Shown: piece after piece, positions 36,161-52,847 of the stretch
How positions within the stretch are numbered: the stretch's first letter is position 1
How the letters are laid out: every line of letters begins with the position of its first letter
DNA from: an uncultured Candidatus Binatia bacterium
Lineage (GTDB): Bacteria > Desulfobacterota > Binatia > UBA9968 > CAXXLF01
Direction of reading: 5' to 3'
Assembly: GCA_965218425.1 (NCBI GenBank)
Contig: OZ244621.1
Coordinates: 2,240,001-2,304,000, forward strand
DNA: 64,000 nucleotides
The notes under the pieces: model-generated
What the model was told of the DNA's origin: nothing
The model's input: only the letters and a program-made list of their open reading frames with translations
Databases searched by the model: none
Translations under genes and position numbers: made by a program

Positions 36161-36307
36161 TGAACTTTACCAATAAAGAAAACAGAGAAGAAAAGAACCC
36201 GGAAGCCAAAATACGACAAGGCGGTCCGCATAGATGGATCGCCTGAAGAGGCCTAACTCGTCGCGGGAGCCGGCCCCGGTTCGGCCCCGGCGCGGCCCAG
36301 CCTCGCT

Positions 36308-38848
36308 TCACAACGATACTTTGGCGATCAGGAATATCGTGCGTCCCCGGACGGAATCCAGAGTCTCTTCCGCGGTCAGCGCTCCAGGGTCCGTGGGGTC
36401 GGTGGACGGACCGCGATCGCCGACGTTGAGGACGCCGCCGACGAGGTCCATTCCGCTCAGGCCGAACGCACCGCTCCAGCGCAGCGTGACGTCGTGCCCC
36501 ATCCACGCCTTGTAGCGGGCGGTTCTCTGGCGGTTCCAGTGGCCCGAAACTCCATAAACGCTCCAGTTGGCGGTAATGACGCCCCTGGTGGCGCGAAGCG
36601 ACGCATGGATGCGGTTGCGCGGGTAGTCGCTCGGTTCCAACTCACCGGCCACGCGCTCCTCGTACCGGGTCAGGTGCGACCAGCGGGCATCAAAGGTCAT
36701 GTCCACCCAATCGGCTTTCCAGCCGGCCCGCCCCCGCAAATCGATACCCGAGACATTGGTTTCCCCGCTGTTGACCAGCGGGCTCTCGATCCGTGTGATG
36801 AGACCTCCGTCGCGCACGACTGCCGCGCCGGACGGCAAGCGCCCCTCCGCGTCCAGGTCGATGACGGACTGCGCGGATAATGTAGCCGGTTGGTCGGAAA
36901 TCCCGATCCGAAACCAGTCCACGCTCAGGGAAAAGGGACCCAGGCCGGCCACCGCGCCGAGGCTGAAGCTCTGGGCTTCATCCGGCTTCAGGTTCGGATT
37001 GCCTTCCCTCACGCGCTCCACCTGAGTTTCGTCGCAATCTTTCAGGTCGCCGGCATGAGTTTTCGTGTCGCAGACGTTCGGATAGTCGATTGCCTCGCGC
37101 AGGTGCAGATCACGCAGGCTTGGCGCCTTCGAGCCCTCGCTCCAGGACCCGCGGAACGTGAGGAACTTGTTCAACCGGTACCGGCTCGCTACCGAGTGGG
37201 AAACCGTCGCGCCGACATCGTCATGGTCATCGCGCCGCACGGCGAGCACGACATCCCAGTCGCTGTGCAACGGCAGGGAAACCTCGGCGAACCCTGACCA
37301 GCGCCGGCGCTTGCCCGCCGCCGAAATGCCGCCGGATCCGAGCACGTCGCCCGCTTGATGGGAACCGCCGAGAACGTCCTTATAATCGTAGACGTTCCGC
37401 CAATCCTCGTAAGCGACCTCGGTGCCCGCCGCCCACCGCACATCGCCGCCGCTTAGCGCGAACGCCGTTCCGTCCAAGGATACCCGAGCCGCCTTGTGGT
37501 CCGTGACCCGATCGCGGTCCAGCAGGAGCCCGGTCTCGCGAATGGCCCCCAGGTGCCCTTTGAGATCGTACCGCCTCTCGTCGATGGCCCTTTGGACCGC
37601 GCTTTCGCTTACGAAGGTACCGCCATCCTCGGCGGTATCGTGACGATAGTACCGGAAGTGCGCGTCATAGCCGATGCCGACCGCGAATCGTCCCCGGACG
37701 CCGAGCGTGAGTTCGTATTCCTCAAGGTCCGTGCGCCAGTCGCGATTGCCGTGGCCGATGAACCGATGGGCCACTCTGATTCTGTCCGGAATATCGCTGA
37801 TTCCGAGATCCCGTTGAAGTTCGCTGCGGAGCTCCGCCGGGGGCGTGAAGGAGAAGGTGCCGACCGACGGGGCGTAGCGGAACTTGGTGTCGCCCCGTGC
37901 GGCCCGGGCGTCGACGTACACGCCCGCGGCCTCGCCAAGCGGGTGATCGAGGTTGAGAAACAGGCTCTCCTTCTTGACACGCTCCGTATTCCAAGCGATC
38001 TCGGGCCAGGCGAAGCCGCAGCCCGTGCCGGGAACACCGATGGGCTTGGTGAGCACACCGGTGTACGCGCTTCCCCGGCAGTCGCCGAGGGCACGCGCGA
38101 CCGAGCCGTCATCGGTGCTGATGAATAGGGTGTTGCCGCCCACCGAAACGTTGGACGCGTCAGCGAACGGGCCGCCCGGCGTCCACGAAGCGCGGCTGTA
38201 GTCCCGGTCCGCACTGCGGATTTCCTGCCTGCGGAAGACGTCCGCGCCGATCACCATGTGACCTCTTCCGAGCGCGCCGCCCCACAGACCGCTCAGGTGC
38301 TTGGTATCGCCGCCCGCGCCGGTGGGCCGGTCGAGGCTTCCCTGGACCTCGACGCCCTCATAATCGCGCCTGAGAACGACGTTGACCGCGCCGGCAATGG
38401 CGTGTCCACCGTGCAAGGCGGCCGCGCTGTCGCTCAGGATCTCGATGCGCTCGACGGCCGATAGCGACAGGAGGTCGAGGTCGAATGTCGAATCCGAAAC
38501 GCGGCGCCCATTGACGAGAACCGCGACCCGGCCGCTCCCGAGGACGAACGGCCGGTGGGCGCCGAAGCTGTTGTAGTGCAAACGCCCCAGCAACAGGTCC
38601 GAGACGTTCTTCATGCCGGACAACTCGATATCCGTCCGGTCGATCACGGCGAGGGGGCGCGCCGCGTCCGCGGCGGCGGCGGGAATGTGGCTGGACACCC
38701 CGAGGCCTCCGCCCGCCGCCTCGACTTGCGGCGAGGCCGCGCATGTCACCGCCACGATCGCTAAGGCGGCGACCGGCCGAAGTATCGCACGGGCTCGGCG
38801 TTCGCGGACCGGCAAGCGCGGAAGCCGAATACGTAGTGCTCCGTTCAT
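36308..38848 (-). CDS. TonB-dependent outer-membrane receptor
   Basis: VLVNGRR; VERIEIL.D.AAA.HG..AIAGAVN plug; GNPNLKPDEA; GRTIF C-terminal strand. Confidence 0.92.
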   Translation of the reverse strand: MNGALRIRLPRLPVRERRARAILRPVAALAIVAVTCAASPQVEAAGGGLGVSSHIPAAAADAARPLAVIDRTDIELSGMKNVSDLLLGRLHYNSFGAHRPFVLGSGRVAVLVNGRRVSDSTFDLDLLSLSAVERIEILSDSAAALHGGHAIAGAVNVVLRRDYEGVEVQGSLDRPTGAGGDTKHLSGLWGGALGRGHMVIGADVFRRQEIRSADRDYSRASWTPGGPFADASNVSVGGNTLFISTDDGSVARALGDCRGSAYTGVLTKPIGVPGTGCGFAWPEIAWNTERVKKESLFLNLDHPLGEAAGVYVDARAARGDTKFRYAPSVGTFSFTPPAELRSELQRDLGISDIPDRIRVAHRFIGHGNRDWRTDLEEYELTLGVRGRFAVGIGYDAHFRYYRHDTAEDGGTFVSESAVQRAIDERRYDLKGHLGAIRETGLLLDRDRVTDHKAARVSLDGTAFALSGGDVRWAAGTEVAYEDWRNVYDYKDVLGGSHQAGDVLGSGGISAAGKRRRWSGFAEVSLPLHSDWDVVLAVRRDDHDDVGATVSHSVASRYRLNKFLTFRGSWSEGSKAPSLRDLHLREAIDYPNVCDTKTHAGDLKDCDETQVERVREGNPNLKPDEAQSFSLGAVAGLGPFSLSVDWFRIGISDQPATLSAQSVIDLDAEGRLPSGAAVVRDGGLITRIESPLVNSGETNVSGIDLRGRAGWKADWVDMTFDARWSHLTRYEERVAGELEPSDYPRNRIHASLRATRGVITANWSVYGVSGHWNRQRTARYKAWMGHDVTLRWSGAFGLSGMDLVGGVLNVGDRGPSTDPTDPGALTAEETLDSVRGRTIFLIAKVSL

Positions 38849-39182
38849 TCTAGATCCTTTCGGTGGCGCGACGGTCCGGATGAGGGAACCGGTATCATTC
38901 GTTTTGCTGATCGGTTCTCGCCGAAAAAGTCATTTTTTCTCAGGTCTCTCCAGCGATTTACGGTACCAAAATGCCGTGCGTAAACTAATAACTCGACAAT
39001 AAGGTATCAAGATATTGATTCTTGTAGCAGAATCCCCCATCCAATTGAAGATCATGATCGTTCTTTAAAAGAGAACCGCGAGAGTTTGTTCCTTATGGGG
39101 GCGTGGAAAGGGACAGGGATTTCTTGACATATCATTATTTGTCATGACATGCTGAGGTTAGAGGAGAGAGGAGAAGTGTGCC

Positions 39183-40109: not shown

Positions 40110-41153
40110 TTATTTCTTGGCAGTGAAGATCAGGGTCTTCGGGTAATGGTCCACCCAACCGAACCAGAAGGAGGGGGTGACAGGTACGGCCTCCAACCTT
40201 TGACCTTTCATTTGACCCTGAACGGCCTTTCCCGTTAGCCCATTCCACACGGAGCCGGTTGTGTCGTCGGTAAGAAAGGTGCCTTTGTAGTTTTCCGGCT
40301 GCGTCTTCTTGAATGTAAGAACCCGGTCTTTCACCTGGCGTTTAAACACCATCCCCGTCGCGCTGTCCTTTTCGAAGACCGCAAGAATTGGGATCCCTTG
40401 GAATACGTCATTGACCACCGGCTGCTTGCTCAGGACGGAATAGGGGTAAGCCTTCGCTTTTCCATCGATCACTAATCCAAGTACGTATTCTTTGGGATAG
40501 ACCCTCTTATCAGACAAGCGAGTGGGAATAATCCCCGTGTCTGCGGAACTATAGTATGATTCGTAAGGGTCCCGTCCCAAGCTGAGGGGAAAAGGCCGTC
40601 CACTGGTTAAAACCTTGGAGTCCGGGTAGAGTCCCATCCAGGTCCCCCAACGAGTAAACGTGGATTCCATGGGTTTGAGCTTGTTCCCGTCCATTGGGCC
40701 TTTGACCGCCGCTCCCACCAGGTGGCTCCAGAGGCTGTCCGTTTGGTGGTCGTACATTATCAGAGAATTGGCATGGAGTTTCCCTGAGACCCCAAAGGTC
40801 AACTCCTTGTCTGCGATTCTACGGTCATACACGATGGCCGTATAACAGAGGGGTCACCAGGTGACCGCGATGGGTATGCCGCCAACTTTGTCGTTGACGA
40901 TTTCAACCCGGCTCAGTGTGGCTACGGGGTAGGCGCGACTGTCCCCATTGATTTCCACACCGATGACGGATTCGTCCGCCTTGAGCCATTGGGCACTTTT
41001 GCCGTCCTGGAACTCGGGGGAGAGGATGGCCGCAATGGCATCCTTGGCCAGGACGGTAATAATCTCATTCGGACGAAGGTCTGCCGCATGAGAATGATTT
41101 GGCAGGAATAGTAAGACCAACAGGATCAGCCATAGGGGAAGACAGTATTTCAA
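40110..41153 (-). CDS. DUF3179-domain exported selenoprotein (Sec at TGA 40854-40856)
   Basis: Two track ORFs in one frame joined as AVTW-U-PLCYTA; EIVND; FGVSGKL; MYD.QT.SLW; TTG start with signal peptide. Confidence 0.88.
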
Positions 41154-41166
41154 TGGGCCCTCTTGT

Positions 41167-41985
41167 TTAGCTCTGGATAGGTTTGGAAGCGGACCGGGCG
41201 AGGTGCAGGAGCTCCTGGATGGGTCTCTTGGAAACCAGAAGGCAGATTCGTTCTCCCATGCGGTGCATGACCCCATTTATCCCATCGTTGGAGAAAGTAT
41301 AAAAACTGACCTTTCTCTCCGGATCAAAGAGCCTGCGGGCTTGTGGTGGAGCGTCTTGTTCCGTGCCGAGAAAGGTAAAACAACTGACAGAAGGACCGGT
41401 GCCCTCGTACACGGCAATGAGGATATCGCGATTGCCGACTTCTTTGACCGTGCCGCCGACGGCCTTTAATCCCGCGGAGGATAGATCATAACCCATTGGC
41501 GCGAATTTGCCCTCCATGGCCTGGTGCAATTGGTTTTTAATTGCTGATGGGCTTTCGGCTCGGACAAAGGAAAGGTCGCCTGAAGCAATCTGTGCATGCG
41601 CCTCTATGGCTGCCAGAGGCATAGGCTGACCGGTCGGCCAGGTCAGGTAAAATAAAGGGACGAGCAGTAAAATCAGTGCGGCCGATGCAAAGGCGGGGCG
41701 GGTGATGAAATTGGGTGTCCGGGAGAACCCTTTACAACCTTGGGTTGGTTCGGTGGCCTGAGGTGAGATATGGTGATCCGCGAGGATCTTTGCTCTGAGA
41801 TCGGAGGGGGCGGACACTTTGGCGCCGATGGAAAAGAGCTGTTTTTTGAGCTCCTTTTCCTGCTCAAATACGGTTTGACAGTTCACGCAATTTTTTAGAT
41901 GGCTCTCTATGGCCTGTCGCTCGAGGTCATTTAGTTCGCTATCCGCTAGAGCGGTTATAAGCTCCTCGGCCTCTTTACAAGTCAT
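41167..41985 (-). CDS. Zinc-finger (HxxxCxxC) transmembrane anti-sigma factor
   Basis: MTC..D.EL..HLKNCVNC; single TM. Confidence 0.88.
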   Translation of the reverse strand: MTCKEAEELITALADSELNDLERQAIESHLKNCVNCQTVFEQEKELKKQLFSIGAKVSAPSDLRAKILADHHISPQATEPTQGCKGFSRTPNFITRPAFASAALILLLVPLFYLTWPTGQPMPLAAIEAHAQIASGDLSFVRAESPSAIKNQLHQAMEGKFAPMGYDLSSAGLKAVGGTVKEVGNRDILIAVYEGTGPSVSCFTFLGTEQDAPPQARRLFDPERKVSFYTFSNDGINGVMHRMGERICLLVSKRPIQELLHLARSASKPIQS

Positions 41986-42202
41986 TTCCGTTACTTTCCT
42001 TCCTCCATGCACAATAGCTATAACCTATACAACGTCGTTCCTACCCCAGGAGTTCCCGAAATATTACCCCTTTACGGCGGCAAATCGATATCATAGCTCT
42101 TGGATGATCCGGGTGATTGTGGTAAGGGGTCTCTTCGTTCCGTGTCTTGTCCTAGAAAATATTCTGCACGGAGTCTTGCACGATGACAAGGGGAGAAAGT
42201 TT

Positions 42203-43573
42203 ATGACCACGAAATACGATGCCATCGTTATCGGTACAGGCCAGTCGGGCCCTTCCCTGGCCGCGCGGATGGCGGGTGAAGGAATGAAAGTTGCCATCAT
42301 TGAACGCAAGTCGTTTGGTGGCACCTGCGTTAATACCGGTTGAATACCCACCAAGACCCTGGTGGCCAGTGCCCATGCCGCTCACATTGCAAGGCGTGGG
42401 GCTGAATACGGGGTGATGATCGGCGGGCCGGTCACCGTGGATATGAAAAAGGTCAAGGAGCGTAAGGACAAGGCGGTGCAGCGGTCCAATCAGGGAGTGG
42501 GCAATTGGGTCAAGAACCTGAAGAACGCTAAGGTTTACGAAGACCACGGGCGGTTCGAGGGACCCCACGCGGTGCGTGTGGGAGGGGAGCTCATAGAGGC
42601 GGATAAGATTTTCATCAATGTCGGCGCGCGCGCGTCGGTAATGGACCTCCCTGGGGTAAATTACTTCACCAATTCGAGCATCATGGAGGTGGATTTTCTC
42701 CCAAAGCACCTGATCGTGGTCGGCGGAAGCTACATCGGCCTGGAGTTTGGTCAGATGTACAGACGCTTCGGCAGCGAAGTGACCATCGTGGACCGTGGGC
42801 CTCGGTTGACCCAGCAGGATGATGAGGACACTTCCCTGGCGATCAAGGAGATTTTGGAAGCGGAGGGGGTGAACGTTCGGCTCGAAGCTGAATGTATTTC
42901 TGCTGCGCAAAAGGGCGATCAGATCACCGTCAATTTGGACTGCAAAACCGGAGGTAAGGAGGTAACGGGTACCCACCTGCTGCTCGCCATCGGACGGCGT
43001 CCCAACACGGACGACCTGGGCATAGATAAAGCAGGCCTCGAAGTGGATCGGCGGGGGTACATCAAGGTGGACGATCGGCTTCAGACCAACGTGCCTGGAG
43101 TTTGGGCCATTGGGGACTGCAATGGCAAGGGAGCCTTCACCCACACCTCGTATAACGACTATGAAATTGTTGCGGCCAATCTGTTCGACGACGACCCACG
43201 CCGGGTCAGCGACCGAATTTTAACCTATGGGATGTTTATCGATCCGCCCCTCGGACGCGCGGGAATGATCGAAGATGCAGTGAAAAAATCAGGCCGCAAA
43301 GCGTTGATAGCAAAGAGGCCCATGACTCGTGTGGCGCGCGCCGTGGAGAAAGGCGAGACACAGGGATTTATGAAGATCTTGGTGGATGCCGAAACCAAAG
43401 AGATCCTCGGGGCCGCCGTCCTTGGTGTTGGTGGCGATGAAATCATTCATTCCATCCTGGATGTGATGTACGCCAAGGCGCCCTGCACGGTTATTCAGCG
43501 GGCTGTCCACGCCCACCCAACGGTGTCGGAGCTGATACCCACCATGCTGGGGGACCTGAAGCCGCTGGAGTGA
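42203..43573 (+). CDS. Class I flavin disulfide reductase (MerA/RclA/Lpd-like) with TGA at the second redox Cys; probable selenoprotein
   Basis: GTGQSG; GGTCVNTG-TGA(42341)-IPTK in frame; GGSYIGLE; GR.PNT; HAHPT.SE; rest of frame intact. Confidence 0.85.
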
Positions 43574-43727: not shown

Positions 43728-44318
43728 TCATTCTCGCTTTTTCCCGCCTTGTTTAACCTCTTCCACCATGTAGCATCGTAGGTATTGGTGAAGGTATTTT
43801 CTACCCCGGGAAAGTCTGGAGCGAATGGTTCCCAAGGGGCATGAGAGCACCTCCGAGGCCTCTGCATATGAAAGCTCTCCCATGTCCACCAGTACAATGG
43901 GCGCTCTAAATTCTTCAGGGATTTTGGTCAGGGCCTCATTGACCTTGACGCTCAATTCTTTAGTGTAGACATTGTCTTCCGGCCCTGGCTCCGGTCCCGG
44001 AAGCGTCTCCCAATAATCTAAGCCCTCTTCGTCCCAGAGACCCCGTCCTTCCACGGCCGCCCATCTTCTCTTCCTGTGGTGGTGATCGAGAAAAAAGTTA
44101 TAGAGGATCCGACTCAGCCACGCCTTCAGGTTGGTTCCAGGGGTGAACTGTTCGAATGAATCAAGGGCACGTAGATAGGCTTCTTGGACAAGGTCTTGAG
44201 CTTCCTGAGGGTCCCTCGATAGGTGTAGGGCAACTCGATAAAGGTGATCGAGGTGTTGCAGCGCCTCTTGGGCGAAGCGCTCTCTCCCGGCTTTGGTGTT
44301 TTTGCCCCTCCGTATCAC
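43728..44318 (-). CDS. ECF sigma-70 factor
   Basis: AQDLVQEAYLRA; NLKAWL.RI; LSY.E...L..PLGTIRSRLSRGR. Confidence 0.92.
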   Translation of the reverse strand: MIRRGKNTKAGRERFAQEALQHLDHLYRVALHLSRDPQEAQDLVQEAYLRALDSFEQFTPGTNLKAWLSRILYNFFLDHHHRKRRWAAVEGRGLWDEEGLDYWETLPGPEPGPEDNVYTKELSVKVNEALTKIPEEFRAPIVLVDMGELSYAEASEVLSCPLGTIRSRLSRGRKYLHQYLRCYMVEEVKQGGKKRE

Positions 44319-44346
44319 GCGGCCATTCTAGCTGAGGGGATGGCCC

Positions 44347-44540
44347 GTGTCTACTTACTTAAATAGTGGTTCAGGTTTCGAGTCCACCACACCCGTGGGC
44401 CGATTCCCTCTGGGGAAGAGTTCCCACGGGCTCTACGACGTGGTGGGAAACACCTTTAGAGTGGACCTCCACGCCCGGAGAATAGTTTTGAAGGGATGTT
44501 CCTGGGATGATTTACCCGGCGCCTGTGGGGCGGCGCAAAA
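44347..44540 (+). pseudogene. Fragment of an FGE-sulfatase (SUMF1/EgtB/PvdO) domain gene
   Basis: TTPVGRFP.G.S.HGLYD..GN and VLKG.SW motifs only. Confidence 0.65.
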
Positions 44541-44678
44541 AACCGGAGGCGGCGGGAAGTGGGTTTATCCGGGTTGAAGTGGGTTGATGCGGGCTGACGG
44601 AACGAAGATGTTGATTTTGACTTGCCGCGAGATTGCTGATATTACCGAAATCAATCTGGTCGTATCGAAGAGGCGTCT

Positions 44679-45641
44679 ATGCAGAGCTTCGCTGAGAAAA
44701 TAAGACAAAGCGGCGACAGCTTCCTCAAGCGCAAGGTGGAAACCCTGCAGGTTAACATGGGGAAGTACTGCAACCAGGCATGCCTGCACTGTCACGTGGA
44801 GGCGGGACCCACCCGGAAGGAAATCATGACTCTGGAAACGGTAGAGTCGGTGCTCCGTTTCCTCGAGAAGTCCGATGTGCCCACAGTGGACATCACGGGG
44901 GGCGCGCCGGAGCTCAACCCGCATTTCGACTACCTCGTGGAGCGCAGCGTCCAGCTTGGCCGCCACGTGATGGACCGATGCAATCTCACCGTCATCTTTG
45001 AACAGGGGAAGGAGTATCTCCCGGACTTCTTTCAAAAAAACCGGGTGGAGCTGATCTGCTCTCTTCCCTGCTACACAGAGGGGAACGTAGACCAACAGAG
45101 GGGCAAAGGGACCTTCAATCTGAGTATCCGGGCGCTGCGGCTTCTGAACGGCCTGGGATATGGAGTCGAAGGCACGGGTCTGGAGCTGCAATTGGTCTAT
45201 AACCCGGTGGGGGCTTACCTTCCGTCGCCCCAGGAACGATTGGAACAGGACTATAAGACTATCCTCAAGGAAGAATACGGCATCGTTTTTAACCATCTCT
45301 ACTGTCTTACCAATGTGCCCATCACTCGATTTGAGACCTTTCTGAAGGTGCGAAACGAGTATGACCGGTATATGGAGCTGATCCAGTCCGCGTTCAACCC
45401 GGATACCGTGGACAAGGTCATGTGCAGAAACATCTTGAGCGTAGGATGGGAGGGGTCCGTTTACGACTGTGACTTCAATCAGATGCTGGAGCTGCCGGTC
45501 TCGAACCGACAGGGTAAGCCGCTAAAGATCCAGGACCTCCATGCCGATGGCCTGGAAAATCAATCAATCGTGGTCGGAAATCACTGCTACGCCTGTACGG
45601 CGGGAGCCGGGAGTAGCTGCGGCGGTTCATTAATAGCGTAA
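44679..45641 (+). CDS. arsS: ArsS-family radical SAM protein (DUF3641 C-terminus), Cys form
   Basis: LQVN.G..CNQACLHCHV; DITGGAPEL; YDCDFNQML; HCYACTAGAGSSCGG. Confidence 0.85.
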   Translation: MQSFAEKIRQSGDSFLKRKVETLQVNMGKYCNQACLHCHVEAGPTRKEIMTLETVESVLRFLEKSDVPTVDITGGAPELNPHFDYLVERSVQLGRHVMDRCNLTVIFEQGKEYLPDFFQKNRVELICSLPCYTEGNVDQQRGKGTFNLSIRALRLLNGLGYGVEGTGLELQLVYNPVGAYLPSPQERLEQDYKTILKEEYGIVFNHLYCLTNVPITRFETFLKVRNEYDRYMELIQSAFNPDTVDKVMCRNILSVGWEGSVYDCDFNQMLELPVSNRQGKPLKIQDLHADGLENQSIVVGNHCYACTAGAGSSCGGSLIA

Positions 45642-46380: not shown

Positions 46381-47685
46381 TCAGGCGCTATCCTCTGCTT
46401 TACTCTGCTTCCGATCCGACTCCAGTGACGCCAGCGCCTCCTTTACCAGCTTGCGCCGTAATTCTTTCTCTTCCTCGCCCGTCAGGTTTGCCGCGCCGGT
46501 GACGTGGACTATGCCGTTGCCCAAAACGACGCGGTTGGAACCGACCATCTTTGCAATGGGCATGGCCGAGGTAATCTGGACCACCGGGATGCCCGCCTTT
46601 TCCAGCTCGGTTGATATCGCAGCTCCGCTGCGAGTGCTCGTTCCTCAGGTGGAGGTGAGGATGACGGCGTCGACCTCCTCCCGCTTCACTTTTTCGGCCA
46701 TCTCCCTGCCCAGGCGCCGCGTGTTCGAGAGCGGGTTCGATAGACCAGATGTGGAGATGAACTCGTGGTGGAGTTTTCCGATCCTGCCGCTTCTTTCCAT
46801 CTCGCGCATGGCGTCGAGGGGCACGAGACGGTCCGGATCCTGTTGAACGAATCTCGGATCATAGCCGCCGTGAGAGATCTCGTAGTCCTCCCCCCTGAGA
46901 TCATCCCGGCCGTCGATGCTATAGGAGCCCCACCGGGTGGCGGCTTGTCCTTCGATTTTGTCCGGGTTGCCCTTCGGAACGAGGCCGCCGTCGGTGATGA
47001 GCATGACCTTGGCCTTCGAAAGATCCCCCACGGCGGAGGGCATGGGAACCGGTTTAAAGGAAGTCGGCAACATCTCAGACTCGAAGGGCTCTCCTTTCAC
47101 TTTCGTCAGGAGCATATCAACGAGCCGGACGGCGGCCGTCCGATCCGCCAGTTGATCGCGCAGGATACCCCGGGAAAGGTAGCCTTCCTCTGCGGGCAGC
47201 CCGATGGACTTACCGTGGACGAGCTTTCCTCCCAGACGCGCCATTTTGGTTAGGACTTGCCGCATCTTGGCGGGGCTCGCACCCGAATTCACGATATAGA
47301 GCGCTTCCCGGTTGAGATCCGCCCCCGGGTTCTCGCTGCCCATCCCGGTAACGACGGGAATCCCCAGGTTGGACTGAACGGCGGCGCAGAGGGACCCCGC
47401 CGCCATCCCATATCGACCCGCTTCGAAGCAAGGACCGGCAACGAACAGCTCTGCACCCGCCTCCCGGACCTTTGCCAGCACCGCGGCCGTCAACTCCTCC
47501 TGGTGTTCCACGGCATGGTTGTCTCCGGAAATGAGGGTCATAACCACACGTGAGCCATCGCCCAGCAGTTGTTCCAACAGCCTCCCCGGTCCTACGGCCC
47601 CCTCACGCGCCTCAAGGGGCATGCCCGCCTGCTCCTCTCCCCCGACTCCGCCGAAAAACTGATTCAAATAGTGTACGATTCGCAT
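46381..47685 (-). CDS. grdB: Glycine/sarcosine/betaine reductase selenoprotein B (Sec at TGA 46645-46647)
   Basis: MRIVHYLNQFFGG.GGEE; AGP.F.AGRYG; TDGGLVPKGNPD; HGGYD; ILTST-U-GTSTRSGA; in-frame continuation to 46381. Confidence 0.93.
46617..46633 (-). promoter_or_regulatory. SECIS-like hairpin of grdB
   Basis: tcgcagc-GGA-gctgcga starting 11 nt after UGA. Confidence 0.8.
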
Positions 47686-49119: not shown

Positions 49120-49587
49120 TTATCCGTCGGCGAGCCCGGAGCGAACCTCCCGCATCGCCGTGGCGATAGCCTCGGTTTCCACTGCCATCTCGATCAGGCC
49201 CACCTCGTCGGCGTAGGTCTCGGGGTCCACCTGCTCCTTGATCTCGGGCTCGGTGATGTGGAAGACGGGGAGTTTCAAGCCGACGCCGCCGAGCGCTCCC
49301 GCCCAGGTCGGATCCCCATCGGTCATGGTCAGGCCGAACAGTTTGCTGCTCTCTGCGGTGGGAGTTCCGAGAAGGACAACGACACCGGCAGTCCCCGTGG
49401 CGTCTACCTTCCGTTTGATTTCTTCTTGACCTTCCAGGTCAAGCGCGCCCGACGCCGTTCAGACGAAACAGTGGGTGAGTTCAAGGATGACTTCGGCGCC
49501 CGCGCTTTTCGCGCAAAGAGCGATGGAGTTGCCTTGAACGCCGTCTCTTTCTCCCAGAACAATGACTTTCTTCCCGTTCAGCTTCAT
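49120..49587 (-). CDS. grdA: Glycine reductase selenoprotein A (Sec at TGA 49459-49461)
   Basis: KKVIVLGERDGV; CFV-U-TASGALDLE.Q; GDPTWAGAL.GV.L.L.V.HI.E; 155 aa on readthrough. Confidence 0.95.
49425..49443 (-). promoter_or_regulatory. SECIS-like hairpin of grdA
   Basis: cttgacct-GGA-aggtcaag starting 15 nt after UGA. Confidence 0.8.
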
Positions 49588-51347: not shown

Positions 51348-52847
51348 ATGATCCGTCTCTCAACGATTCCCAATCGGGCGCACCTGATCAACTGGTTTGA
51401 ATGGGGGGAAGAGGCGTTCCGCGCGGCTCGAGGCCACAATAAGCCCTTGATGCTTTTTTTGCACGCCTTTTGGTGCCGTATCTGCCAGCGAATGGACGAG
51501 GACGCCTTCTCTAACGACGAGAATATCACGTTGCTGAACGCCTACTTCGTCTCGGTCCGGGCGGAGAACGCGAAGCGGCCCGACGTGGACGTTCGCTACA
51601 ATCAAAACGGGTGGCCCACGATTGTTTTCATGACCCCGGAGGGGGAACAGCTCGCCTGCGCGAACAGCCTTGACGCGGAGGCGCTCGGAAGCCTTTTGGT
51701 TCGGGTCTATGAGGCTAATCGGAAGATTCGAAACGAAGTTCGCGGGAAAAAGGGAACACTCGCACGGGCCCCACGCGAGGCCGCGAGTCGGCCGGACCCC
51801 ATCGACCATCGGGACTCTGGCGTTTCGGAGATTACCCAGCTGATCATGGGGCTCGCCGACCGCGTTCACGGCGGCTACGGGCATGGTCGGAAATATATCC
51901 ATTCGGATGCGAACGATTTTTTGCTCTCCCGTTATGGAGCGGCAAAGAATTCCGACTATCTCGATCACGTGTGTTTAACTCTCGACCGGATGCGGGAGAG
52001 TCCGATCCACGATCGTGAAGAGGGCGGGTACTACCGCACTGCCTCCGGTGAGGACTGGAGCGGCCCCCACCGGGAAAAGCTTCTGGCGGATCAGGCGGGC
52101 ATCCTTAACAACTGCCTGGGGGTTTTCGAGATCACTAAAAACCCAACCTATGCGCGTATGGGTGAAGGCATTATCGACTACCTGAATAACAGGCTTTTGG
52201 ATTCTTGCAGCGGAACCTATTTCGGTTGCGAGGATTTTATTCGAAGCGAAGACAAGGATGCTTCTTCCCGGGCAGGGTATTTCTCCATCCTGGACGACTG
52301 TATTTACACGGACGCGAACGCCGACGCCATCGGCGCTTACCTCAGAGCCTATGCCGTGTTGGGCAAGTCGGCCTGCAAGGAGATTGCGTTAAAGGCGCTG
52401 GAATTCATCTGGGACAAATGCCGGAGTCCCCGAGGGGGAGTCTATCATTACTTCGACGGCGCGCCTCACGGGCCGGGATTGCTCGATGATCAAGCGCGCC
52501 TGGGCGCGGTGTTGGTGCATGCATGGAAAGCCACCGGCGAAACTCGGTATCTGGACCGCGCGAAGGATTTGGCCGAATTCATTCTGGCGAGACTGAGAAA
52601 CCCGGCCGGCGGCTACTACGATCTTTCGGCGCCGGGAGCCGCATACCTCCGCTACCCGCTGACTCTGATCGAACGGAACGGAGCCGCTGCGGCGTTTTTT
52701 TTCGCCCTCGCCGAGTCCAGAGGCGAGGCCAAATACCGGGACGCAGGGGTTTGGGCCATCGGCGCGTTCACGGGAGATTTCGGTCGGTACGGAATTCACG
52801 CGGCGGGGTTCGGTCGAGCGCTCGCTGAATTCGTGCGGCGTCCTTAG
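51348..52847 (+). CDS. DUF255 thioredoxin-like plus alpha/alpha-toroid protein (YyaL-like)
   Basis: INWFEWGEEAF; WCRIC; RPDVD.RY..GWPT; HD..EGGY.R; PH.EK.L.DQA. Confidence 0.85.
   Translation: MIRLSTIPNRAHLINWFEWGEEAFRAARGHNKPLMLFLHAFWCRICQRMDEDAFSNDENITLLNAYFVSVRAENAKRPDVDVRYNQNGWPTIVFMTPEGEQLACANSLDAEALGSLLVRVYEANRKIRNEVRGKKGTLARAPREAASRPDPIDHRDSGVSEITQLIMGLADRVHGGYGHGRKYIHSDANDFLLSRYGAAKNSDYLDHVCLTLDRMRESPIHDREEGGYYRTASGEDWSGPHREKLLADQAGILNNCLGVFEITKNPTYARMGEGIIDYLNNRLLDSCSGTYFGCEDFIRSEDKDASSRAGYFSILDDCIYTDANADAIGAYLRAYAVLGKSACKEIALKALEFIWDKCRSPRGGVYHYFDGAPHGPGLLDDQARLGAVLVHAWKATGETRYLDRAKDLAEFILARLRNPAGGYYDLSAPGAAYLRYPLTLIERNGAAAAFFFALAESRGEAKYRDAGVWAIGAFTGDFGRYGIHAAGFGRALAEFVRRP

Follow-up and report, generated by a model that had tools for sequence, protein, structure and literature searches.

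In class I flavoprotein disulfide reductases such as glutathione reductase (GR) and dihydrolipoyl dehydrogenase (Lpd), the second Cys of the CxxxxC motif is the flavin-proximal charge-transfer thiol. To our knowledge, animal thioredoxin reductase (TrxR) is the only well-known flavoprotein disulfide reductase that uses selenium, and in this enzyme the N-terminal CVNVGC motif beside the FAD is all-sulfur, while selenocysteine (Sec) is carried on a mobile C-terminal arm (GCUG). Here we describe a gene at positions 42203-43573 of a 64,000-nucleotide stretch of DNA (referred to as the window) from an uncultured Candidatus Binatia bacterium (GenBank assembly GCA_965218425.1, contig OZ244621.1, positions 2,240,001 to 2,304,000) that, judging from its sequence and those of its relatives, very probably encodes a genuine Sec-decoded flavoprotein disulfide reductase. 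Like the high-molecular-weight animal TrxR, the product is predicted to be a class I enzyme employing a selenenylsulfide, but its Sec would lie within the flavin-adjacent motif itself, and it has no C-terminal extension.

The nearest characterised relatives are RclA of Escherichia coli, Har of Streptococcus pneumoniae and the staphylococcal protein named 'MerA', which are described as stress-induced small-molecule reductases that reduce hypothiocyanous acid via an active-site Cys pair; in RclA, C43 and C48 are both essential and cycle between the dithiol and the disulfide (PMC9335216). Based on alignment with the RclA structure (6kgy), these enzymes share the fold, the position of the CxxxxC motif and the HPxxSE dyad with the reductase described here, but they possess two Cys residues where the latter has one Cys and a predicted Sec. 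The 119 prokaryotic selenoprotein families tabulated in a 2026 review include no class I CxxxxU reductase, and the only flavoenzymes among them are the CoA-disulfide-reductase type and type III SQR (PMC13188914, Table 1). Both are, as here, FAD/NAD(P) enzymes with two dinucleotide-binding domains and an active-site Cys-to-Sec replacement, but they belong to other families and have a single redox Cys/Sec, in contrast with the CxxxxC-type pair of the present enzyme. The review's entry for a 'putative mercuric reductase' refers to a UxxU metal-binding domain (PMC13188914). No description of a CxxxxU class I reductase was found by term searches of the main text of PMC9312934, PMC2398784, PMC12013277 and PMC13326102 or by searches of the open full-text literature. 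The gene thus appears to represent a new Sec form, absent from the 2026 catalogue, of an otherwise known family of enzymes, the selenium being predicted at the flavin-side redox position.

The reductase and its active site

Translation of the gene confirmed the claim of a first-pass annotation of the window that the 456-codon frame is intact except for a single internal stop, a TGA at codon 47. The surrounding motif is GGTCVNTG-U-IPTK, in which the TGA occupies the position of the second, flavin-proximal Cys of CxxxxC. This placement, also claimed in the annotation, was borne out by comparison with the best solved-structure matches, Thermus thermophilus Lpd (2eq6, GGVCLNVGC) and E. coli RclA (C43/C48): C42-VNTG-U47 aligned column by column with CLNVGC of 2eq6 and CINIGC of 6kgy, so that U47 falls on the second redox Cys of both. 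The protein matched the Pfam domains Pyr_redox_2 (PF07992, E = 8e-62, residues 5-316), Pyr_redox (PF00070) and Pyr_redox_dim (PF02852), and every feature of the class I superfamily was found, namely the GxGxxG motif with the Pyr_redox_2 fold, the CxxxxC position, the NAD(P)H and dimerisation domains, and the HxxxxE dyad.

With U read as C, the protein scored 775.3 bits against the NCBIfam model NF004992 (PRK06370.1-4), above its cut-off of 629, while the sibling model NF004990 gave 783 bits, below its cut-off of 842. Cys-type orthologues covered by these models (NF004990/NF004992, PRK06370) are up to 78% identical over their full length and have the same domains and the same GGTCVNTG-x-IPTK motif; they differ in encoding the flavin-proximal Cys by TGC or TGT, where the gene studied here has UGA. 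We know of no member of this PRK06370 'FAD-containing oxidoreductase' family with a known substrate. Several better-characterised enzymes were considered and rejected. Mercuric reductase MerA is distinguished by a C-terminal Cys-Cys pair and the metal-binding NmerA domain; the reductase scored 309.7 bits against TIGR02053 (cut-off 454.45), ends in ...GDLKPLE without a Cys pair, and has no N-terminal extension or NmerA. Scores were likewise below cut-off for Lpd (TIGR01350, 352.9 bits versus 408.8), RclA (NF040477, 323.7 versus 740) and hypothiocyanous acid (HOSCN) reductase (NF041853, 302.2 versus 650), and a high-Mr TrxR was rejected on the absence of a C-terminal GCUG/CC arm and a score of 145 bits against the TGR model TIGR01438 (cut-off 476). 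The NCBIfam models for GR and mycothione reductase also gave scores below their cut-offs, CoA_CoA_reduc (TIGR03385) gave 79 bits versus 579, and no selenoprotein-specific model in NCBIfam release 20 matched.

These data suggest that the product would be a 456-residue, homodimer-type NAD(P)H:FAD disulfide reductase of the PRK06370/RclA-related branch of class I. The UGA at codon 47 would be decoded as Sec by the SelA/SelB/SelD/tRNA-Sec system of the organism, and, judging from the homologous redox pairs in Lpd and RclA, Cys42 and Sec47 would form a selenenylsulfide instead of the usual disulfide, its selenium lying on the side of the flavin. In the proposed cycle, NAD(P)H would reduce the FAD, and the reduced flavin would attack the selenium of the selenenylsulfide to produce a selenolate-FAD charge-transfer state. 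Cys42 would then act on the substrate, and the selenolate would subsequently re-close the Se-S bond. Compared to sulfur, selenium is the better electrophile and the better nucleophile and leaving group, and faster flavin-to-centre and resolving steps would therefore be expected. Additionally, Sec47 should resist irreversible over-oxidation.

Recurrence and decoding of the TGA codon

The source genome (one 4.46 Mb contig) encodes the complete set of Sec genes whose presence the first-pass annotation had left to be confirmed: a tRNA-SeC, together with selB (413 bits), selA (592 bits) and selD (378 bits), all above their cut-offs, with selD itself containing a UGA. Genomes of 40 relatives were compared, the source genome being designated G000. 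In G001, from the same genus, the orthologue is 91% identical and retains the TGA, while in four other genomes (G003, G007, G021 and G027) orthologues of 68-73% identity have TGC at this codon. Two genomes from another family of the order (G009 and G037) contain a paralogous sister type, 44% identical, with TGA at the same codon. Between G000 and G001, which differ at 112 codons synonymously and at 42 non-synonymously, the ratio of non-synonymous to synonymous substitution rates (dN/dS) was 0.095 upstream of the UGA (dS 0.42) and 0.083 downstream (dS 0.56), indicating purifying selection on both sides; the downstream frame is not evolving neutrally, and a decaying gene is therefore ruled out.

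A degenerate pattern requiring TGA at this codon was used to scan contigs representing one genome per species. It identified 44 loci, 36 of which have a full-length open frame after the TGA, while 4 are open to the contig end and 4 contain an early stop. Both archaeal matches belong to the last group, and their two genomes lack a selB above cut-off. The loci fall into three families. Family A, the PRK06370 type of the reductase itself, is represented by seven species, including a same-genus locus (L055) with a coding sequence identical to that of G001; the frames behind the TGA are open for about 410 codons, the species are labelled SAR324, Acidobacteria, Planctomycetota, Syntrophobacteraceae and Binatia, and selB was above cut-off in all five genomes tested. 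Besides the genus pair, TGA is present at this codon in intact orthologues from six further species belonging to other phyla. Family B (PRK06370/RclA-like, motif CVNYGUTPTK) and family C (NF004947, 'dihydrolipoyl dehydrogenase'/mycothione-reductase-like) are sister families; family C accounts for most matches, and 25 of the 44 loci are labelled Nitrospirota-type. Like the reductase studied here, families B and C have TGA at the homologous codon within intact frames, with selB present in the one host genome tested (that of L028). They differ in being only 29-44% identical to it and in having well-supported hairpins, resembling selenocysteine insertion sequences (SECIS), with no equally supported counterpart in family A. 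At 5 of the 10 Nitrospirota loci scanned (L029, L059, L061, L064 and L069), the family C Sec reductase adjoins a gene for a protein of about 400 residues with a C-terminal class II aldolase/adducin domain. At a further locus (L060:2774-4042, minus strand), a true Lpd (TIGR01350, 505 bits, above cut-off) has TGA at the same redox codon followed by 413 open codons, and no selB was found in this 2.7 Mb metagenome-assembled genome; the locus may represent a fourth Sec family, or else an error or a pseudogene.

A narrower, CV-type pattern covering families A and B produced at least 120 matches in metagenomes; among 80 of these, 35 frames were intact, 37 open to the contig end and 8 interrupted by an early stop. 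In a sample of 201 genomes from one acidobacterial class, the orthologue was present in 28, as a Cys form in 26, a Sec form in one and a form with two TGAs in one. A phylum-wide survey of 400 genomes added two further homologues, an under-count, since four candidates were scored per genome. A tree of family A, constructed from 12 Sec and 60 Cys sequences (the latter comprising every second of the 112 Cys-type database matches described below plus 4 loci), displayed interspersed Sec and Cys forms, with well-supported branches that force at least three changes. The Sec form L046, for instance, is sister to the Cys form P0065 with 100% support.

Public annotation obscures this distribution. Among the best 120 database matches, the 7 with at least 86% identity all lack the N-terminus (385-403 aa), beginning immediately 3' of the TGA, while the other 113 are full length and at most 78% identical, with Cys at the codon in 112 (the remaining one, P0101, gave no match to the motif). 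The full-length proteins are named only 'FAD-containing oxidoreductase' or E3 component. Database matches to family C follow the same pattern of truncated calls. This represents a systematic annotation error, in which all the public calls for Sec forms found here lose the FAD-binding motif and half of the active site.

Three other explanations of the TGA were weighed against Sec. A sequencing or assembly error for TGC or TGT would require a difference of only one base, but the same TGA is present in the independently assembled G001 and in dozens of unrelated assemblies. The divergence between G000 and G001, together with this recurrence, therefore rules out an error, which, judged from the assemblies, we regard as effectively refuted. 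The TGA could alternatively be a true stop, leaving either a pseudogene or a split gene that encodes a 46-residue peptide and a separately started protein of 403 residues. The truncated products reported by gene callers, the lack of an unambiguous SECIS in family A, and the further early stops at 8 of 80 metagenome loci (of at least 120 matches) and 4 of 44 genome loci would all be in keeping with such a stop. However, the 46 upstream codons contain the GxGxxG motif and Cys42 and are under purifying selection, the TGA occurs at exactly one codon in seven family A species from several phyla with a long open frame behind it, and the broken frames coincide with genomes lacking selB, namely those of the two archaeal matches. 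Moreover, a product without the first beta-alpha-beta unit of the FAD domain and half of the redox pair would be non-functional, based on the established knowledge of the disulfide-reductase fold. We consider a true stop very improbable.

The remaining alternative is read-through of the UGA in which another amino acid takes the place of Sec at least some of the time, whether by near-cognate insertion of Cys or Trp or by insertion of Cys via tRNA-Sec at low selenium. In that case the working enzyme would be a standard CxxxxC reductase, and the UGA would throttle its expression. This reading is compatible with the failure to identify a clear SECIS specific to family A and with the occurrence of fully functional Cys forms in close relatives, exemplified by the sister pair L046 and P0065. 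In contrast, the gene's own terminator is TGA, implying that UGA is not generally reassigned in this organism; among the six intact-gene genomes tested, TGA forms were found only together with selB, apart from that of L060; and in the sister families the TGA at the same site is followed by hairpins kept by Sec-specific codon choice. These results make read-through of this kind very unlikely. The first-pass reading of the TGA as Sec, rather than as a nonsense mutation or an error, accordingly stands on the Sec machinery of the genome, the conservation of the TGA in a second species of the genus, the dN/dS values and the intact orthologues in other phyla. It is this comparative evidence, rather than a hairpin, that is the basis for Sec.

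Candidate SECIS elements

The first-pass annotation had drawn attention to a short hairpin, ctgg-TGG-ccag, that begins 15 nt after the UGA, and this offset is indeed the same as that of the hairpin in grdA (UGA at 49459-49461, minus strand). Its role as a SECIS could not be substantiated: the predicted stability is only -2.1 kcal/mol, it lies outside the minimum-energy fold, and it is also present in a Cys orthologue, L006. The 70 nt from the UGA fold with -29.6 kcal/mol (z = -3.0) into two other hairpins, H1 and H2 (Table 1). Between the source genome and G001, codons 48-75 contain 2 synonymous differences compared to 6.9 expected (one-sided P of about 0.02, for a region chosen post hoc). Helices similar to H2 are, however, also found in the Cys forms L006 and L220. 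A stem at +20..+41, homologous to the hairpin of one sister family, was rejected as a SECIS because the Val-Ala...Ala-Ala codons leave four of its pairs no freedom to vary; its free pair, 23-38, is paired in 4 of 14 family A Sec forms, which is the level expected by chance.

Several results weigh against the Sec reading of the gene. Of 14 distinct Sec-form sequences, only 9 retain the first-pass hairpin intact, and it also occurs in L006. More generally, this hairpin, H1, H2 and the +20..+41 stem follow in large part from the encoded peptide, and all are seen in Cys orthologues too. RNAalifold detected no shared structure among 13 family A Sec-form sequences (only -2.9 kcal/mol). The loop of H2, at 38 nt from the UGA and with no G at either of its first two nucleotides, narrowly misses the bSECISearch-type criteria, which specify a loop of 3-14 nt located 16-37 nt after the UGA with a G in the first two loop positions. 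A per-sequence hairpin scan of the gene using these criteria produced candidates of only -3.5 and -2.1 kcal/mol, with equal or better ones in Cys forms. When minimum folding energies were compared after shuffling of synonymous codons (13 Sec and 28 Cys sequences, with the sister families included as well), Sec and Cys forms were not distinguished, but the Nitrospirota positive control also failed, so this test had no power. Finally, no Rfam family was matched, and two sub-threshold matches to mir-486 merely reflect the hairpin.

In a SAR324-like subclade, an AGG Arg codon contributes to a separate 8-bp hairpin, CCYUGGUG-GCUAG-CGCCAGGG; this codon is unused in Cys forms with the same peptide, although the comparison is confounded with lineage. 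In family C (29 of 30 loci parsed), the peptide Y-P-(A/G)-D-R is encoded as TAT CCG GNN GAT AGR in all 12 Sec forms. These codons form the hairpin CUAUCC-GGN-GGAUAG about 22 nt after the UGA, which is possible in only 1 of 17 Cys forms sharing the YPADR peptide. In family B, a 7-bp stem is present at +20..+41. Pair 23-38 of this stem, free to vary at third codon positions, is maintained in 25 of 26 distinct sequences, switching between G-C (18) and C-G (6). The retention of these hairpins in families B and C by compensatory or Sec-specific synonymous codon choice points to SelB-dependent decoding. For the reductase gene itself, the structures downstream of the UGA are candidate hairpins only with respect to a Sec-specific SECIS of family A.

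Genomic neighbourhood, proposed function and significance

The coordinates of the gene, its parts and its immediate neighbours are listed in Table 1.

Table 1. Coordinates of the reductase gene, its sequence elements and adjacent genes in the window
Feature	Position	Strand	Remarks
Class I flavoprotein disulfide reductase gene, predicted Sec form	42203..43573	+	456 codons plus terminal TGA; PRK06370-type 'FAD-containing oxidoreductase'
Shine-Dalgarno-like GGGGAG	42190..42195	+	7 nt 5' of the ATG at 42203; read from sequence
FAD-binding GxGxxG (IGTGQSG, codons 10-16)	42230..42250	+	Translation and Pfam
Cys42 (TGC), first (interchange) redox Cys	42326..42328	+	Aligned with first Cys of CLNVGC (Lpd, 2eq6) and CINIGC (RclA, 6kgy)
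UGA codon 47, predicted Sec, flavin-proximal redox position	42341..42343	+	By alignment; TGA or TGC in relatives
Hairpin H1, CCACCA-AGACCC-UGGUGG	42348..42365	+	In minimum-energy fold; competes with first-pass hairpin; present in Cys forms too
First-pass hairpin, CUGG-UGG-CCAG (4 bp, triloop)	42359..42369	+	Weak SECIS candidate, -2.1 kcal/mol
Hairpin H2, 14 bp with bulge	42367..42404	+	Alternative SECIS candidate, -19.3 kcal/mol; apical loop 38 nt after UGA
His438...Glu443 (HPTVSE), Lpd/GR-type acid-base dyad, dimerisation domain	43514..43531	+	Aligned with HPTLSE (2eq6) and HPSMSE (6kgy)
zf-HC2 (RsrA-like) anti-sigma factor, divergent neighbour	41167..42012	-	Same arrangement in same-genus L055
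Extracytoplasmic function (ECF)-type sigma-70 factor, convergent neighbour	43728..44318	-	Same arrangement in L055
DUF3179 selenoprotein, VTW-U-PLC	40110..41276	-	TGA at 40854-40856; downstream of anti-sigma gene

Within the genus, represented by the source genome and L055, the order of the ECF sigma factor, reductase, anti-sigma factor and DUF3179 selenoprotein genes is kept. DUF3179 is a known selenoprotein family (PMC13188914, Table 1). An ECF-type promoter-like sequence, GGAAC-N17-CGTT (42031-42056, minus strand), lies some 20 nt 5' of the anti-sigma gene; in L055 the -35 element GGGAAC is kept and the -10 element is AGTT. No promoter of the reductase gene itself was identified at the locus. 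The separation of the sigma and anti-sigma genes by an oppositely oriented reductase gene is an unusual layout for such pairs. The region 5' of the sigma gene (44319-44564, minus strand) is about 115-140 nt longer in the source genome than its counterpart, L055:1937-2042, and the two have in common only the proximal 45 nt and the word CCAGGAAC.

Outside the genus, no conserved neighbours were found either in a scan of seven loci (36 of 46 open reading frames (ORFs) of at least 90 aa, the 10 excluded being pieces of the reductase itself or overlapping ORFs) or in a scan of 17 loci (59 of 106 ORFs of at least 100 aa, the nearest neighbours picked by hand and those of L037 excluded). The reductase is accompanied by a glucose-6-phosphate dehydrogenase gene in L046, a MerR regulator gene in L048, and unrelated genes at other loci. 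The reading of the locus as part of a stress regulon thus rests on two closely related genomes.

The first-pass annotation had noted three other Sec genes within 8 kb, and these were recovered: the DUF3179 gene, a GrdB-like gene (TGA at 46645-46647) and grdA. It had further proposed that the reductase could supply electrons to the neighbouring glycine/sarcosine/betaine-type reductase (Grd), replacing TrxR and thioredoxin (Trx). GrdB-like, GrdE/G-like, GrdA and GrdC genes do lie 3-8 kb from the reductase, and, as stated in the annotation, the window contains no trxA or trxB: a WCGPC motif was found in no frame, and the only TrxR above cut-off lies outside of it. This TrxR, however, is a canonical trxB in the same genome (G000:C1:2334737-2335642, 422 bits versus a cut-off of 343). 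Moreover, the reductase gene lies outside the grd transcription unit: it has the opposite orientation, is flanked by the sigma and anti-sigma genes and is separated from grd by the ArsS gene and others; grd genes occur within 4 kb in none of the 7 other family A loci, the same-genus locus included; and the protein lacks a C-terminal redox arm or Trx-docking extension. A dedicated role as electron donor to Grd was therefore not supported, and we consider it quite unlikely.

Other genes of the window are of interest in their own right. The GrdB-like selenoprotein (46381-47685, minus strand) reads ...LTST-U-GTSTRSGAA, a UxxSxxS motif, where PMC13188914 gives UxxCxxC for GrdB. It passes the broad model TIGR01918 only, and not the GrdB, GrdF or GrdH models, and may represent a divergent substrate-specific B component. 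A 499-aa protein adjoining the grd genes (51348-52847, plus strand) has an N-terminal thioredoxin-like DUF255/Thioredoxin_7 domain and weakly resembles the selenoproteins TsoB and Trx7/PDZ. The member of the ArsS-type radical SAM (seleno)protein family at 44679-45641 (plus strand; TIGR04167, 443 bits) ends with TAA after ...GSSCGGSLIA; this copy is of the Cys type and not a fourth Sec gene. A TonB-dependent receptor ORF (36167-39055, minus strand) encodes 846 aa under translation table 11 and 962 aa if two TGAs are read through, and a TonB-dependent receptor type is among the selenoproteins listed in PMC13188914.

With respect to function, the properties of the nearest characterised relatives, RclA, Har and the staphylococcal 'MerA', together with the flanking ECF sigma/anti-sigma pair, suggest that the enzyme may be induced under stress to reduce either a small electrophilic oxidant or some low-molecular-weight disulfide. 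This proposal is tentative, and we would give it somewhat less than an even chance.

It is also possible, if rather doubtful, that flavin-proximal selenium is a distinct and recurrent catalytic solution, accompanied by new flavin-selenium chemistry and a latent SECIS, such that at least three class I families would have repeatedly swapped the flavin-proximal Cys, but never the interchange Cys, for Sec. If true, this would entail a flavin C4a-selenium adduct and selenolate-flavin charge-transfer chemistry, for which we know of no studied natural precedent. Selenium may lower the potential of the centre, or adapt it to substrates such as selenium/sulfur species or strong electrophilic oxidants, and peptide-imposed mRNA hairpins just 3' of the codon, acting as a latent SECIS, may help repeated switching between Sec and Cys. 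If selenium does lie directly against the flavin in a natural enzyme, its effect on electron transfer from flavin to dithiol could be tested directly. For the bacterial selenoproteome, the finding would add a widespread family, with 36 intact one-per-species genes across three families and at least 120 metagenome matches for families A and B.

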